From the NCBI GenBank assembly GCA_038203565.1, contig JBBRDV010000001.1, positions 72,335 to 136,334 on the forward strand: DNA of 64,000 nt, given 5' to 3'. The position numbers and the translations under genes are program-made. The stretch is from Atribacterota bacterium (lineage in GTDB: Bacteria; Atribacterota; Phoenicimicrobiia; Phoenicimicrobiales; Phoenicimicrobiaceae). The stretch's first letter is position 1. The number at the start of each line of letters is the position of its first letter. Of the stretch, positions 3,163 through 63,771 are shown piece after piece. The notes below the pieces were generated by a model, which worked only from the letters and a program-made list of their open reading frames with translations, was not told the origin of the DNA and ran no database searches.

Positions 3163-4505
3163 ACTGTTTCCCTCTCCTCACTTTTTCTCGCTAAATTGAT
3201 AACTACAGGTGAGCCTTCAAAACCAAAAGTTTCATAAAATTTATTTTCTAAATATTTATGATAAGAGGTATACATTAATTTAGGATTGTTTACAAATAAT
3301 AGAAATGTAGGTGGTTTTATCCCTGTTTGAGTAGCGTATTTAATTTTTAGGGTATTTCCCACTACATATTTTGGAGGATTTTTAGAAATAACTTCTCTTA
3401 TAAAAGCATTTATTGCCGAAGTGGGAATTTTTTTACTGTATTGTAAGGCAACTTCTTTAATTTTTGAAATAATTTTATCAATATTATAACCTGTTATGGC
3501 AGAAGTCATTATCACGGGAGAGTTTTTCATAAAAGACAATTCATATCTTATCTCATCAATAAATAATTTTCTATCTATATTATCTTTAATTAAATCAAAT
3601 TTATTCAATATTATAATGCAGGCTTTTCTTTCATCTTGGATGTAATTTGCCATTTTTTTATCTTGCATGCTTACTCCCTGGGTAGCGTCCAATATCAATA
3701 ACACTATATCTGAATTATGCACCGCTTCAAAAGTTCTTAATGTACTGTAATATTCAACATCTTCTTTCGGTTTCGCCTTACCTCTCAAGCCTGCGGTATC
3801 GATAAATATTAATTTTAGTAAATCATGTTTAAAAATTATTTCAATAGCATCTCTGGTGGTGCCGGGATGTTCGCTGACTATAATTCTATCTTCCCCTAAA
3901 ATACGATTTAATAAACTTGATTTTCCTACATTGGGTTTCCCAATAATTGATATTTTTATAATGTCCTCTTCTTCTTCCGGTTCTGTTCCTACTTCTGGAA
4001 TACAGGATACTATTCTATCTAATAAATCATCAACATTAAGTCCGTGTTCTGCCGAAATAATATAGGGATCTCCGAATCCTAATTCGTAAAACTCATATAA
4101 TTTTAATTCACTTCCCTTTACATCTCCCTTGTTGGCTACCAGGATGCTTGTTTTATTTTTTTCTCTAATCGCTTTAGCCACCTTAAAATCATCCGGATTT
4201 ATTCCCTCTTTGACATCGACCAATAATATAATTAAGTCTGCCTCTTCAATAGCCAATTTAGTCTGAACAGTTATTTTTTTTTGCATTTCTTCTTTTTTTA
4301 TAAAATCCACGCCTCCGGTATCTACCAGAACAAATTGCTTTCCTTTCCATTTACATTCTGCATATATCCTATCTCTGGTAATTCCAGGTTCGTTTTCCAC
4401 AATAGCGGTTCTTTTCTTGGTGATTCTATTAAATAGGGTCGATTTCCCTACATTTATCCTTCCGATAATAGCAACAATAGGTTTTCTCAAGGCAAACACT
4501 CCCAT
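3159..4505 (-). CDS. der: ribosome-associated GTPase Der/EngA (tandem GTPase domains)
   Basis: Two G-domains (GRINVGKSTLFN and GKPNVGKSSLLN; DTAGLR) followed by a C-terminal KH-like domain. Overlaps plsY by 4 nt. Confidence 0.9.
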   Translation of the reverse strand: MGVFALRKPIVAIIGRINVGKSTLFNRITKKRTAIVENEPGITRDRIYAECKWKGKQFVLVDTGGVDFIKKEEMQKKITVQTKLAIEEADLIILLVDVKEGINPDDFKVAKAIREKNKTSILVANKGDVKGSELKLYEFYELGFGDPYIISAEHGLNVDDLLDRIVSCIPEVGTEPEEEEDIIKISIIGKPNVGKSSLLNRILGEDRIIVSEHPGTTRDAIEIIFKHDLLKLIFIDTAGLRGKAKPKEDVEYYSTLRTFEAVHNSDIVLLILDATQGVSMQDKKMANYIQDERKACIIILNKFDLIKDNIDRKLFIDEIRYELSFMKNSPVIMTSAITGYNIDKIISKIKEVALQYSKKIPTSAINAFIREVISKNPPKYVVGNTLKIKYATQTGIKPPTFLLFVNNPKLMYTSYHKYLENKFYETFGFEGSPVVINLARKSEERETV

Positions 4506-4522
4506 TTTTTAATTTTATTTTC

Positions 4523-5179
4523 CTATTTTAAAATGTTTTTTATTTTCTTTATGGTCATTTCAGGATTTGAGCTTTTAGATATGATTTGACCAACCACAAT
4601 TATTTCTGCTCCGGCTTTAACCACCTGATAAATATTATCTAAATTTATTCCGCCATCAACTGCCAAGCTTATTGATTTTTTTTGATTATCTATTATTTTT
4701 CTCGCCTTTTCTATTTTAGTAATCATCTCCGGGATAAATTTCTGCCCGCCAAAACCCGGATTAACTGTCATTAATAATAATATGTCTATCTTATTAATTA
4801 AATACTCAATAACACTTAGAGTAGTTGCCGGATTTAGAGCAATACCGGATTTTACATTAGACTCATTAATAGTTTGGATAAGTCTGTCAAGGTGTTTAGA
4901 AGTTTCGTAATGTACAATTATAATATCTCCACCCGCATCAACAAATGATTTAATGTGATTCTCCGGTTTTTCTACCATCAGATGAACTTCTAAGGGAAGA
5001 GAGGTTATACTTTTAATTGATTCTACTATCCTGGGACCAAAGGAAATATTCGGTACAAAATTTCCATCCATAATGTCTAAGTGAAGTAAATCTGCCCCTC
5101 CGTTTTCTATCTTTTTTATTTCTCTTTCCAAATGGGCAAAATCTACATCCAAGATTGAGGGAGCCAATTTTTTTATCAT
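4523..5179 (-). CDS. rpe: ribulose-phosphate 3-epimerase
   Basis: APSILDVDFAHLEREI..HLDIMDGNFVPNISFGP..VNPGFGGQKFI, which are Rpe hallmarks. Confidence 0.9.
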   Translation of the reverse strand: MIKKLAPSILDVDFAHLEREIKKIENGGADLLHLDIMDGNFVPNISFGPRIVESIKSITSLPLEVHLMVEKPENHIKSFVDAGGDIIIVHYETSKHLDRLIQTINESNVKSGIALNPATTLSVIEYLINKIDILLLMTVNPGFGGQKFIPEMITKIEKARKIIDNQKKSISLAVDGGINLDNIYQVVKAGAEIIVVGQIISKSSNPEMTIKKIKNILK

Positions 5180-7368: not shown

Positions 7369-7543
7369 ATTAATCGTTGATTTTAAATACAACTTTTAGT
7401 TGTCAGTCTACAGTCTGGTACAAGGGAATATAATAATACAACCTCTACGCGCTTTGATTTTTCTATAAACTGGCAACTTGAAACCTATAATTATTAATTA
7501 TTAATGTATTTATTTGCTAAAGGCTATTCACTAATGACTAATT
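7369..7543. mobile_element. MITE-like dispersed repeat, copy A (~175 bp) bounded by degenerate inverted 12-mer termini
   Basis: Left end ATTAATCGTTGA; right end CTAATGACTAAT (reverse complement ATTAGTCATTAG). The core is ~80% identical to copy B at 22920-23117. Confidence 0.6.
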
Positions 7544-10000: not shown

Positions 10001-10047
10001 TAAAATTTCTCCTTATTCACTAACGACTAATACACTAACGGCTAATT

Positions 10048-22919: not shown

Positions 22920-23117
22920 ATTAGTCGTTAGCTTCAAATACAAGTTTTTAGTTATCAATTTACAGTTTATTACAATGGAGTATGATAATACAACCTTAAC
23001 ACGCTTTGAGTTTTCTAAAAACTGGCAACTTGTAACTTGAAACTTAAAACCCATAACTTATTAATCATTAATGTGTTTTATTTACTAAATACTATTCACT
23101 ATTCATTAACGACTAAT
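22920..23117. mobile_element. MITE-like dispersed repeat, copy B (~198 bp) with perfect-ish terminal inverted repeats
   Basis: ATTAGTCGTTAG ... TTAACGACTAAT termini. The core (TACAACCT..ACGCTTTGA.TTTTCTA.AAACTGGCAACTTG.AAC) aligns with copy A. Confidence 0.6.
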
Positions 23118-24525: not shown

Positions 24526-24666
24526 AGTTTTTTCCTCCCAATCTTTTGCCTATATTTAAACTTGACAATTTATTTCTAATTATTTTTAGCAGGTTCGACG
24601 TATCGTACGCCCACCTCTTAGCCTTAATCTTCTCCACGCAATACTCGATACTCGATGCTAATTACT

Positions 24667-31371: not shown

Positions 31372-31438
31372 AATTAGTCGTTAGCCTGTCTGCGCCTGCC
31401 TGTGCAGGTTCGCACAGGTAGATGAATAGTCATTAGTG
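31372..31438. repeat. ~67-bp hairpin-containing intergenic element, copy 1
   Basis: ATTAGTCGTTAG-CCTGTCTGCGCCTGCCTGTGCAGGTTCGCACAGGTAGATG-AATAGTCATTAGTG. Internal 7-bp stem CCTGTGC/GCACAGG. Copy 2 lies at 39546-39614 in inverted orientation. Confidence 0.7.
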
Positions 31439-31554
31439 TTAAATACACGTTTTAAGTTTTCAGCTCTCGGTTTTCAGTAAGTAGGGCCGTATTGCTTATT
31501 CTATTAACCGGTAAACCGAGTAACTGGTCAACTAATACGATATACGATATACTG

Positions 31555-37989: not shown

Positions 37990-38160
37990 AAATGATAGAA
38001 CATAGTATTTCGTATTTCGTATTTCGTTAAGAAAGACTAGCGCAGAGTGTGTAGCGTTTAGTGTAGAGTTAAGAAAGAAGAATACAAAAGTCTAATTCGT
38101 ATTTGGTGAATCGTATCTCGGATGTAACGATATACCATATACGATATACGATATACGATT
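37990..38160. repeat. cluster of 7-bp-periodic tandem repeats and ACGCT-module
   Basis: (GTATTTC)x3 at 38004-38026; CTAGCGCAGAGTGTGTAGCGTTTAGTGTAGAG, the reverse complement of the CTCTACGCTAAACGCT..CACT module; CGTATCTCG; and (ATACGAT)x3 ending at the pdp stop. Confidence 0.7.
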
Positions 38161-39487: not shown

Positions 39488-39545
39488 TTAATGTTTCCTC
39501 CCAATTGTATTCTTTGGGAATTTTTTTTGCATTTTGTATTTAAAA

Positions 39546-39614
39546 CTAACGACTATTCATCTACCTGTGCGAACCTGCACAGTCAGGCGCAGACAGGATA
39601 TTTACTAATGACTA
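39546..39614. repeat. ~67-bp hairpin-containing intergenic element, copy 2 (inverted, overlaps hppA stop codon)
   Basis: Reverse complement is nearly identical to 31372-31438, differing at one position. Confidence 0.7.
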
Positions 39615-48371: not shown

Positions 48372-48374
48372 CGT

Positions 48375-48672
48375 AACTAAATATAGTATCGAGTATCAAG
48401 TATCCAGTATCGAGCGAAGGAAATCGGTTGTCAGTTATCGGTTATAATTTTTAAATAAAGAAATAAAAAGAATTGGATTCTGTATTCTGACTTCTTTTTA
48501 TTAACTAACCAGCAAGGGATGCAATGTGTAACATTTGGTAAGTAACGTGTAATAAGTAACCCGTTGTTGTAAATCCAGAACTATAGTTTTATTACATATT
48601 ACTTAATACTGTGTTCTTTTCACTCTACGCTAAACGCTCCACACTAGTTTGCACGAGATACGAGATACGAAT
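48375..48672. repeat. two repeat clusters in the recO-glyQ spacer
   Basis: 48380-48415 TATCGAGTATCAAGTATCCAGTATCGAG (TCGAGTA-type heptads) and 48612-48672 CTCTACGCTAAACGCTCCACACTAGTTTGCACGAGATACGAGATACGA. Confidence 0.65.
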
Positions 48673-48680
48673 TTAGCCAG

Positions 48681-49442: not shown

Positions 49443-49841
49443 TTATAAAAGATCATTTTTACCAAATGCCTCAGGAAGCAATTCCTTTATTTTTTTAATC
49501 TTAACATCTCCCTTTAAATTCACCATAATCAGGGGAATATCTTCACCAAATTCTGATATTACCTGCCGGCAAGCGCCACAGGGAGAACAGGGTTTATCTG
49601 TATCACCAATAACAGCGATAGCTTCAAATTTAGTTGAGCCCTCTGAAATAGCTTTAAAAATAGCGACTCTTTCTGCGCATACAGTCAAACCAAAAGATGC
49701 GTTCTCAATATTGCAGCCAGTAAATATTTTGCCATCAGCGCAGAGAACAGCAGCTCCCACTTGGAATTTAGAATAGGGAGTATAGGCCCTTTTTCTGACC
49801 TTTTCTGCTTCTTTAATTAATTTTTTAAATTCTTCTTTCAC
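49443..49841 (-). CDS. cdd: cytidine deaminase
   Basis: CAER, and PCGACRQV zinc-binding motifs. Confidence 0.9.
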   Translation of the reverse strand: MKEEFKKLIKEAEKVRKRAYTPYSKFQVGAAVLCADGKIFTGCNIENASFGLTVCAERVAIFKAISEGSTKFEAIAVIGDTDKPCSPCGACRQVISEFGEDIPLIMVNLKGDVKIKKIKELLPEAFGKNDLL

Positions 49842-49942
49842 AGTATTTTCACCTTCTTTATTTAAACCACGTCTTTGTTTCCTCTGGCACCAAATGAATC
49901 CATATTTTCCCCTGGTTTAAGTTTATAACATTTCCCTGGTTA

Positions 49943-50792
49943 TCATAACATACAGTCGGTTCGGTCTTTAGACTTTTTGACCCACTTCGTTAAATAATAA
50001 TTTCCTCCGTAAAATATCTTGGCAATACCTTCGCCGATTACCCCTACCTCCAGCCTTCCCTCTTCATCACCGGGTATTTCTTCAACCGGAATATACTGGA
50101 TTATTATATTGGAAGCAGCTATAGATTCGAGGGTTTTGCTATCCTGATGGGGCTTAGAATTTATGTACCTTAAATAGGTGTTGGTATTGGCTTTATATTC
50201 GTAAGATATGGTAAGATATGGTATATTTTTGGTTATATTGAATAGATATTTTAGTGATATCCCCTCCTGATAAATTCAGTGTTCTTAGGCTGAACAAATA
50301 GTTATCCAAATTTACCTTTTCCTGAAAACCCATTTTTCTGCTCTTCTCTCTTATATTCTGGGTTTTAGCAAAAAGATTTATCCATCCCCCAATGTTTTTA
50401 TCCCGCCAATAAGAGGAAGGATAAAGCATCTGGTCTAAATTAACCATCCTTTCACTCTTCAAGCTCTGCCCTCCACAGTGAGCAAAGATGGCAGACCACT
50501 CTATAGCTAATCTTGAAAAATAATACCTGCTGCTTCTGACCGGTCCTACTATAACCTCATCACTATTATTAAACATGGCCATTAATCTGGTAAAAGGATA
50601 CTCTACATTTGCTTCATAAATTATATCTGCCTTATTCAGACCAGTTTGGTGAATTACTTCTTCGGGTGAATTGCCGATCATTATGGCTAAGGGTCTTACA
50701 GTGCTGGCGTAAATATTACTATTTATAGTAAGACGAGTAAATAAAACAAAAAATAACAATATAAACACGCATAAAAATGATTTACTCAACAT
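49943..50792 (-). pseudogene. DUF3048 (YerB-like) secreted protein gene disrupted by a +10-bp tandem duplication
   Basis: The 199-aa ORF (signal peptide, then AIMIGNSPE..GPVRSSRYYF) stops at 50193. Another frame continues as SYEYKANTNTYLRYINSKPHQD..IPGDEEGRLEVGVIGEGIAKIFYGGNYYLTKWVKKSKDRT, matching the DUF3048 C-terminal domain. The frames are joined by removing one copy of the GTAAGATATG x2 repeat at 50201-50220. Confidence 0.7.
50201..50220. repeat. 10-bp perfect tandem duplication GTAAGATATG x2 inside DUF3048 gene
   Basis: Read directly from the sequence. It explains the frameshift. Confidence 0.9.
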
Positions 50793-50806
50793 TTCGTCCT
50801 TTATAA

Positions 50807-51826
50807 TTATTTAGCTTTATCAAATTCGTCTTCTATCTCTCCAAAAATTTCCTCTAATAAATCTTCTATGGTAACTACTCCGGATATTTTATTTTCTTTA
50901 TTTATTACTACGGCAATATGTACTTTCTTTCTCTGAAATTCTTTTAGAAGAGTAGTAACTCTTTTACTTTCTGAGACCGAGTAAGGCGGATGGATCAAAC
51001 CTAATAATATTATACTTTTACTTAATTTCTTTTTTAAATCTCCGATAAGGAAGTCTTTGGCATAAATAAAACCTATGATATTATTTATATTATTCTGATA
51101 AACCGGTATCCTGGAAAGACCTTCTTTGTTCATTAATCTTACTGCTTCCTCTAAGCAGGTATTTTCTTCAACAGCTACCATATACTTTTGGGGTATCATT
51201 ACATTCTTAACAAAAATATCATTTAGATTTAAAATTCTTTCAATCATATTTTGTTCCTTTTTCTCTAATACACCTTCCTTTTCGCCGACTTCAAAAATTA
51301 ATTTTAAATCTTTTTTAGTAAAAAAAGCATTTAAGGGTACATACTTCTTACCAGTAAAGATTCTAATGATAAAGTTCGATATCCAACTGAAAAAGACTTC
51401 AATGGGATAAAGGATGTAAGAGGCTATTTTTAAAAAATAAGCTGCCTTAAGCGAAATTTTTTGTGAATTATTTTGAGCAATGGTTTTAGGAATTATCTCG
51501 CAAAAAACTAAAATTATTAGAGTAGTAAACAATATTGAAATAGTAACTCCTCTATCACCCCATATATGCATTGCCAGGGCAGAGGAAACCGTGGAAGATA
51601 CGATTACTGCTATATTGGTTCCGATTAGAACCAACCTTAAAAATTTATCGGGCTTTTGAATTAAATTAGACACTATTATAGCTTTTTTATCCCCTCTCTT
51701 GGCTAAATATTTAAGATGCAGCTTACTGGTAGAGATAACTGCAGTTTCTGTACCGGAAAAAAAAGCAGCAATAAATATACATATAAATAATATAAAAGGG
51801 TAAACTTTAATCCAAAAATCTGTCAA
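50807..51826 (-). CDS. CNNM/HlyC-CorC family transporter (DUF21 + CBS pair, no CorC_HlyC domain)
   Basis: GTETA DUF21 motif plus a CBS pair. Ends directly after the CBS domains. Confidence 0.75.
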   Translation of the reverse strand: MTDFWIKVYPFILFICIFIAAFFSGTETAVISTSKLHLKYLAKRGDKKAIIVSNLIQKPDKFLRLVLIGTNIAVIVSSTVSSALAMHIWGDRGVTISILFTTLIILVFCEIIPKTIAQNNSQKISLKAAYFLKIASYILYPIEVFFSWISNFIIRIFTGKKYVPLNAFFTKKDLKLIFEVGEKEGVLEKKEQNMIERILNLNDIFVKNVMIPQKYMVAVEENTCLEEAVRLMNKEGLSRIPVYQNNINNIIGFIYAKDFLIGDLKKKLSKSIILLGLIHPPYSVSESKRVTTLLKEFQRKKVHIAVVINKENKISGVVTIEDLLEEIFGEIEDEFDKAK

Positions 51827-51840
51827 AATTTCCTTACCTC

Positions 51841-53199
51841 CTATGAATCTTTATCCGGAATGTTACTTTTGTTCTGTGGTAGTTCTTTTATTATCTTTAC
51901 TCTTCTAATTCTATTTTTTACTACCTGTTCTATGATCATTTGACAATTCTGATACCTTATCTTTTCATCTTTCTTAGGCACTCTGCCCAATAGATCAAAA
52001 ATAAAACCACCCAGGGTCTCGAAACCATTTTCAGGTATTTTGATGTTTAGAATTTCATTAATCTTGTCAATACTTATTATTGCATCAGCAATTACAATAT
52101 TATCTCCGATCATTTCATACAATTTTATCTCTTTATCATATTCATCAATTATCTCGCCTACTACTTCCTCTACCACATCCTCCATGGTAATCAATCCTAC
52201 TGTCCCGCCATATTCATCAATAGCAACGGCAATTTGAATTCTATCTTTCCGAAAAATATCCAACAGTTCGTCTATTTTCTTATTTTCCGGAACAAAGTAA
52301 GCCTCCCTTATTATCCCCTTTAAATCAAACTTTTTCTTTGAAGTATACCATTGCTCATATATGCCTAAAAGATCCCTGGCATACAGTACCCCGATAATAT
52401 TGTCTATAGTTTCTTCAAATACCGGGATTCTCGAATGTCCCATTTTTTTAATCAATTTTAATATTGAACCTAATTTAGTATCAGAAGGAATGCAAGCCAT
52501 GTCTACCCGGGGGATCATTACTTCTTTTACCATAGTATCGCCAAATTCAAATATATTTCTAATCATCTTTTTCTCTTCTTCCTTTATCACTCCCTCATCC
52601 TTACCCATATCTATCAAAGTTATTAAATCTTCTTCGGTAATTCCTTTTTTCTCTTTAGTCTTTTTCATTCTTAAAAAATAATATAGGGCGCTAATTATTA
52701 TTTTGAAAAATTTTATTAGAGGAAACAACCCGATAGAAATTATTTCTATCGGTCTAGCAACTTTTTTGGATATTTTTTCGGCATTAACAACAGCTAATGA
52801 TTTGGGGATAATTTCTCCAAAAACAAGTATGGTAAAAATCATTATTCCGCTGGCTATACCGATGCCTATATTTCCAAAAAGTTTTATAGCTAAATAAGTA
52901 GCCAAAGAGGATGCCGCAATGTTTACGAATGTATTACCAATTAAAATAGAGATTAATGCTCTTTGAGGATCATCAAGGAGTTTGATAATTAATTTTATCC
53001 GCCAATTGTTTTCTTCTTTTTTTTGCATTTTCTTTAATTGTAATTTATTAAGAGAGAAAAGAGCGGTCTCTGTGCCGGAAAAAAAGGCAGATAGTATTAT
53101 GAAACTCAGTAAAGCAATAGCTTCAAATATCAATATTATTAAATTAAGGGGGTCATCCAAAAAATAATCACCGCAACTTTTTAAAATATCGCTAAGCAT
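51841..53199 (-). CDS. CNNM/HlyC-CorC family transporter (DUF21 + CBS pair + CorC_HlyC)
   Basis: GTETA DUF21, a CBS pair, and a C-terminal transporter-associated domain. Paralog of the gene immediately downstream. Confidence 0.8.
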   Translation of the reverse strand: MLSDILKSCGDYFLDDPLNLIILIFEAIALLSFIILSAFFSGTETALFSLNKLQLKKMQKKEENNWRIKLIIKLLDDPQRALISILIGNTFVNIAASSLATYLAIKLFGNIGIGIASGIMIFTILVFGEIIPKSLAVVNAEKISKKVARPIEIISIGLFPLIKFFKIIISALYYFLRMKKTKEKKGITEEDLITLIDMGKDEGVIKEEEKKMIRNIFEFGDTMVKEVMIPRVDMACIPSDTKLGSILKLIKKMGHSRIPVFEETIDNIIGVLYARDLLGIYEQWYTSKKKFDLKGIIREAYFVPENKKIDELLDIFRKDRIQIAVAIDEYGGTVGLITMEDVVEEVVGEIIDEYDKEIKLYEMIGDNIVIADAIISIDKINEILNIKIPENGFETLGGFIFDLLGRVPKKDEKIRYQNCQMIIEQVVKNRIRRVKIIKELPQNKSNIPDKDS

Positions 53200-63617: not shown

Positions 63618-63771
63618 ATAATTTACACTCCTAAGTTAGTCGTTAGTTTGAAATACAATATACAAGATAAACTAGTTAAATAGTTTAATTCTAATAATTT
63701 ATTAACCAATTAACTAAGTAATTAAGCAACAAATCGAGATATATATTAAAATTATAAAATTATAAAAACAA

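Follow-up and report, generated by a model that had tools for sequence, protein, structure and literature searches.

A probable recent pseudogene of a YerB-like DUF3048 gene in an Atribacterota lineage, carrying three slippage-type lesions

The locus described here raises the question of why an open reading frame (ORF) for a DUF3048 (YerB-like) protein stops after 199 amino acids (aa) while the sequence beyond it, in another frame, continues with the C-terminal domain of the same family. It was examined within a window of 64,000 nt, which is the whole stretch of DNA that was analysed. The initial annotation attributed the break to a 10-bp tandem duplication, which could have been a recent slipped-strand event, a sequencing or assembly artefact, or a phase-variable switch. 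We conclude, with a probability of roughly 85%, that the locus is a genuine pseudogene, recent and confined to its lineage, that derives from a DUF3048 gene which is conserved in Atribacterota and encodes an exported protein, and that it originated from slippage-type mutations.

The DUF3048 locus and its intact orthologues

The 199-aa ORF lies on the minus strand at 50792..50193 and ends at 50193, as had been described. It begins with an N-terminal hydrophobic segment (signal or anchor), continues through the DUF3048 N-domain and takes in ~14 residues at the start of the C-domain, after which five out-of-frame residues (HILRI) are followed by a TAA stop. In Pfam searches the ORF matched PF11258, the DUF3048 N-domain, with an E value of 9e-30, and the frame downstream of it matched PF17479, the C-domain, with an E value of 2e-16. 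The family assignment was confirmed when the protein was repaired conceptually by removal of the two insertions described below. The repaired protein was aligned to the DUF3048 profiles, as had been proposed, and matched PF11258 at 103–104 bits (gathering cutoff 25 bits; E 1e-29; residues 30–156, profile positions 12–147 of 148) and PF17479 at 89.1 bits (E 3e-25; profile positions 1–114 of 114). Only after such repair was the PF17479 gathering score passed in the same chain, since the actual sequence spreads the C-domain over two further frames. Consistent with this, when the repaired protein was compared with the window by tblastn, it hit frames −3, −1 and −2 in succession; the same search for a DUF3048 paralogue in the window found none. 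The repaired protein also matched the solved structure of YerB (2PSB) along its full length, with residues 31–300 of the query aligned to 29–300 of the chain at an E value of 1.3e-19, or 8.6e-22 when a profile of orthologues was used. The literature goes no further than to list YerB as a putative lipoprotein whose function is unknown. A search of NCBIfam returned nothing meaningful.

The whole pseudogene occupies 49858..50792 on the minus strand, as delimited by the Pfam matches after both repairs, by tblastn and by a DNA alignment that is collinear from start to stop. Its ancestral coding sequence amounts to 924 nt with the stop codon, to which insertions have added 11 nt, and the whole is read in three successive frames. 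In place of the intact ORF of a functional DUF3048/YerB member, the locus has two frameshifts with premature stops at 50193–50195 and 49943–49945. Judged from its sequence, then, the locus is a bona fide representative of the DUF3048/YerB-like family, as a pseudogene of that family.

The gene is conserved and intact in relatives. Searches with the repaired protein returned 276 homologues, and among the best 120 of these, 119 were 307–311 aa long and 80–98% identical; the remaining one was a 270-aa fragment. The few homologues with source labels were assigned to Atribacteria or Caldatribacteriota. The gene is carried by 11 species-representative Atribacterota genomes (Ca. Sediminicultor and others), a count that includes one contig cut off part-way through the gene. 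In every one of the more than 100 full-length orthologues listed, both domains are present in one chain. Intact orthologues are under purifying selection, with dN/dS values of 0.13–0.35; the constraint is somewhat weaker than that on CNNM, cdd and recO (0.07–0.25). P0001 is the closest protein, with 98% identity and a length of exactly 307 aa. It is encoded on four Logan contigs (SRR17021127-30), which are about 98–99% identical to the window in DNA sequence, with an identity of about 99% over the segment of the gene. An AlphaFold2 model of P0001 reached a mean pLDDT of only 39.5 because the alignment, with 26 close homologues, was too shallow, and it offered no functional hint beyond 2PSB.

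By gene calls on the closest contigs, the gene order around P0001 is DUF1850-DctM-CNNM-CNNM-DUF3048-cdd-recO, which is also the order in the window. The immediate neighbours in the window are intact on the minus strand: the upstream CNNM/CBS-domain gene (50807..51826, 339 aa) and the downstream cytidine deaminase gene cdd (49443..49841, 132 aa). Six neighbouring genes have equal lengths in the window and in the relative contig L012. Two side observations concern this neighbourhood. The ancestral start codon ATG (MKKE...) is ATA in the window and P0001 lineage (window 50793–50810), where the start lies four codons downstream, and this change accounts for a protein of 307 aa as opposed to 311 aa in most relatives. 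Since the intact P0001 has the ATA as well, the change predates pseudogenisation. In the other CNNM gene (51841..53199, minus strand, 452 aa), the window and contig L013 differ at 28 codons, and 21 of these lie within codons 27–81, at window positions 52957–53121, a clustering that is suggestive of a short recombination tract.

Three lesions and their polarity

The first lesion is a perfect tandem duplication of 10 bp at 50201..50223, where 2.3 copies of GTAAGATATG are found on the plus strand. On the gene strand it reads TACCATATCT-TACCATATCT-TAC and shifts the frame after codon 194. Deletion of one copy fuses the two frames exactly, as had been claimed, into ...QKYTISYEYKANTNTYLRYINS..., which is what intact orthologues read at this position; the PF17479 match of the fused protein starts at profile position 1 and spans the junction. 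All five aligned contigs, from four distinct relatives, have a single copy. Because the DNA alignment shows one copy in the relatives and two in the window, the repeat could be identified as an insertion. The ancestral site, ...ATA TAC CATATCT TAC GAA..., contains a TAC-N7-TAC microhomology. This supports the proposal of a recent slipped-strand duplication as the origin of the repeat, a mechanism that would fit the ancestral sequence. The 10-bp repeat by itself is not statistically remarkable. The window, which has a G+C content of 33%, contains 10 perfect two-copy repeats with a period of 8–15, set against an expectation of ~3.9 and a highest count of 10 across 30 Markov simulations. Intact genes contain some of these repeats.

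Repair of the duplication alone did not restore the gene. The resulting protein is 279 aa long and covers positions 1–92 of 114 in the C-domain profile (62.8 bits). The duplication thus accounts for the first frameshift, as the initial annotation held, but two further lesions had been missed.

The second lesion is a single inserted base at 49962, a C on the plus strand and a G on the gene strand. It changes GACC-AACCGAC to GACCGAACCGAC on the gene strand, and the extra G is lacking in five of five aligned relative contigs. With the insertion, a 5-nt repeat that had been imperfect becomes perfect (TCGGT-TCGGT, 49956–49965). The frameshift falls after ...KWVKKSKD and leads the second frame into premature stops at 49940..49945 on the minus strand (TGA at 49943–49945 and TAA at 49940–49942). 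Position 49943, formerly taken as the end of the gene, is therefore a premature stop created by this lesion. Beyond the stop at 49943–49945, the third frame reads ...PTVCYDNQGNVINLNQGKIWIHLVPEETKTWFK up to the ancestral stop codon, a TAA at 49858..49860 on the minus strand, which is the true end of the gene and lies 16 nt upstream of the start of cdd, with the same spacing as in intact relatives. When both insertions are removed, the protein is 307 aa long with a full C-domain and contains ...KWVKKSKDQPTVCYDNQ.... An A5 run (GTCAAAAAGTC, plus strand 49974–49978) was also considered as the site of the second frameshift and was rejected, as the DNA alignment places the inserted base at 49962.

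The third lesion lies just upstream of the coding sequence. Between the CNNM stop and the DUF3048 start, 37 nt that are present in nine of nine aligned relatives are absent from the window. In the relatives closest to the window these 37 nt are flanked by two copies of the 9-nt direct repeat AATTATAAA (gene strand), one of which is left in the window at the deletion junction (50800..50808); blastn alignments to relatives all break at 50800/50808. A plausible AAGGA ribosome-binding site is kept despite the deletion. A promoter and terminator scan around the locus gave matches at chance level and was uninformative on what the deletion had removed.

As the three lesions are absent from all aligned relatives, they are derived and specific to the window lineage. 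Against contigs L013 and L014, which are ~98% identical, the upstream flank aligns without gaps over 3.7 kb, and within the gene segment gaps occur solely at the 10-nt and 1-nt insertions. Similarly, ~4.9 kb of flanking coding sequence is gap-free against relatives that are ~98% identical. Relatives with the same split would have pointed to a stable pseudogene; among the relatives examined none has it except the Logan contig L016, which agrees with the window at 100% identity along 16.6 kb. The duplication junction and the +G junction were also sought in JGI metagenome contigs, and neither was found, nor was any intermediate with a single lesion. The lesion-bearing allele is known from a single population.

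The inactivation appears to be recent, since the substitutions on the window branch are much as in the neighbouring genes. When polarised with contig L001 they comprise four synonymous and two non-synonymous changes, too few to judge, and they give no substitution-level sign of relaxed selection; a neighbour-like pattern fits a very recent event and proves nothing. One of the two non-synonymous changes, Y278C, affects a Tyr that all of 26 orthologues share.

The lesions are three independent small mutations. The 10-bp duplication between the TAC microhomologies causes the frameshift at codon 195 and leaves a 199-aa product without nearly all of the C-domain. The 1-nt insertion that perfected an imperfect 5-nt repeat adds a second frameshift near codon 273, and the 37-nt deletion between 9-nt direct repeats takes away the spacer that immediately precedes the start codon. 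We propose that replication slippage or misalignment generated all three. Once the first lesion had arisen, selection may have relaxed and let the others accumulate, and a functional full-length product is presumably absent.

Alternative explanations and other frameshifted alleles

It is very unlikely that the indels were introduced by sequencing or assembly and that the gene is intact in the organism. The source is apparently a metagenome-derived genome, and some members of the population might still have a one-copy allele. Records of exactly this 199-aa product come both from an NCBI contig, presumably the one to which the window belongs, and from the Logan assembly of SRR19962010. The Logan contig, L016, was produced by a different pipeline and agrees with the window, at the lesions as elsewhere, with 100.000% identity across 16,600 nt; the two contigs may nevertheless share one read set. 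None of the three lesions is a change in homopolymer length. All three lie within ~1 kb, in one gene whose neighbours are intact; random errors would not cluster in this way, whereas relaxed selection acting on a single gene would be expected to give such a pattern. In addition, the other ORFs of the window are uninterrupted, up to a length of 1189 aa, and its larger ORF-free gaps hold small intact genes (rpsP, a KH-domain protein gene and rpmF).

Artefacts can occur in this kind of data, as two further alleles may illustrate. The 90% cluster of the truncated product contains two more frameshifted DUF3048 alleles, L017 and L018, both on metagenome contigs and each with a single-base change in a homopolymer that may be an error. 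L017 (positions 3751–4673; Logan SRR17021131) equals L012 minus one T in a T5 run at codon ~93, and four sibling runs of SRR17021131 have the intact allele. L018 (positions 118–1052; JGI 3300015048) resembles L001 (99%) and has lost one base from a T5 run at codon ~145. These lesions may represent real recurrent loss or homopolymer errors, and we treat them as a lead only. With three assemblies holding three different frameshifted alleles, the gene could be a target of recurrent loss in Atribacterota populations, which we consider unlikely. If the L017 and L018 lesions are real, they would suggest selection for the loss of an exported envelope protein, or population heterogeneity in it. Such loss might then reflect escape from phage or other surface-directed pressure, and it would offer a first clue to the function of the YerB family, which is uncharacterised.

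It is also highly improbable that the locus is still functional, whether through the truncated 199-aa protein, through translation of the two halves apart from each other or through programmed frameshifting. The signal or anchor and a complete PF11258 domain are intact in the 199-aa ORF, and its ribosome-binding site is kept; set against this is the invariable presence of both domains in one chain in the full-length orthologues noted above. Over 108 codons the C-terminal piece contains no ATG, GTG or TTG, and it is therefore untranslatable on its own. To yield a full-length product, recoding would have to occur twice, at separate sites of which none is conserved in any relative. Furthermore, Y278C at an otherwise invariant residue suggests that the C-terminal piece is no longer maintained. 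Programmed frameshifting and a split gene were rejected on the grounds of the missing start codon and of the two recoding events at unconserved sites that would be required.

Least probable is a contingency switch, in which the copy number of the 10-bp repeat would toggle the gene on and off by slippage: a perfect tandem array does lie within coding sequence, in a gene whose product is an exported or envelope protein, with one or two copies among related strains and other frameshifted alleles in other assemblies, but the array has only 2.3 copies, and a return to one copy would leave the frameshift at 49962, so the idea of a phase-variable switch was not upheld. Known contingency loci consist of long tracts of short units. 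At this locus, the single copy is the conserved ancestral state in all relatives and not an expandable array, and perfect two-copy repeats of such size are common in this AT-rich window, intact genes included.

The reading of the locus as a recent pseudogene matters mostly for annotation. A single pseudogene with two frameshifts should be entered at 49858–50792, in place of a 199-aa 'DUF3048 domain protein' and an empty spacer behind it. The reading would also mean that at least one Atribacterota lineage can live in its habitat without this otherwise conserved and constrained YerB-like gene.

Intergenic repeats and comparison with known systems

Repeats of other kinds were observed in the window, mostly between genes. 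A 22-nt motif, TAGTCGTTAGNTTNAAATACAA, occurs five times with up to three mismatches (0.01 expected), at 7371–7392, 22922–22943, 31427–31448, 39534–39555 (minus strand) and 63637–63658, and all five sites are in intergenic spacers. The motif lies within longer dispersed repeats, one pair formed by 7394–7513 and 22946–23065 (120 nt, 76%) and another, inverted, by 31373–31447 and 39535–39609 (75 nt, 91%). A related sequence, CACTAACGACTAATA, is present in 1.9 copies at 10018–10046. The motif may belong to an intergenic repeat element or serve as a regulatory site. There are also tandem arrays of 7-nt units, again mostly intergenic (for example in the recO-glyQ spacer and upstream of an 880-aa gene), at 38127–38159, 38005–38027, 48385–48414, 48653–48670, 31535–31552, 24641–24656 and 2486–2533. 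Their units include ACGATAT (4.7 copies), GTATTTC (3.3), AGTATCG (4.3), ACGAGAT (2.6), ATACGAT (2.6) and others. Rfam and tRNA scans of the window gave no matches, and no Rfam family corresponds to the 7-nt arrays. The recO-glyQ spacer of the related species Ca. Sediminicultor sextus (L002:5501-5625) matches a different spacer of the window, 31419–31552, at 86%, and the recO-glyQ spacer of the window itself (48373–48680) gives no alignment between relatives. Because of this mismatch of spacers, the sequences suggest that an intergenic element may move or be exchanged between spacers.

The repaired window protein has the two-domain architecture of Bacillus subtilis YerB (2PSB), PF11258 followed by PF17479, and, like YerB, an N-terminal hydrophobic export signal. 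It differs from YerB in that two frameshifts and an upstream deletion disrupt the window copy, and in that its host belongs to the Atribacterota, whereas that of the Bacillus protein is a Firmicute. In addition, Bacillus YerB is a putative lipoprotein, whereas the protein of the window lineage appears to lack a canonical lipobox. The Cys in the ...FTCLT... motif of most relatives is an Arg in both the window and P0001. The protein of the window lineage was probably cleaved by signal peptidase or membrane-anchored, and not lipidated.

The locus resembles the phase-variable genes of Neisseria and Haemophilus in that a tandem repeat in a gene for an exported protein shifts the reading frame. Unlike the repeat tracts of those genes, the window has a two-copy 10-mer whose effect is irreversible through the second frameshift, and its relatives show no copy-number series of the kind associated with such switches.

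The locus also resembles bacterial pseudogenes formed by slipped-strand events (microhomology-mediated tandem duplication or deletion), which arise by small indels at short direct repeats, as do all three lesions in the window. The repeats concerned are TAC-N7-TAC, the imperfect 5-nt ACCA/ACCGA (gene strand) and the paired 9-nt AATTATAAA. As in ordinary slippage pseudogenes, close relatives are intact and several lesions are found in one gene, and nothing essential differs. The locus is thus an ordinary pseudogene, unusual only for three slippage-type events within ~1% divergence. It provides a clean example of three such mutations in one gene, with no new mechanism or system.
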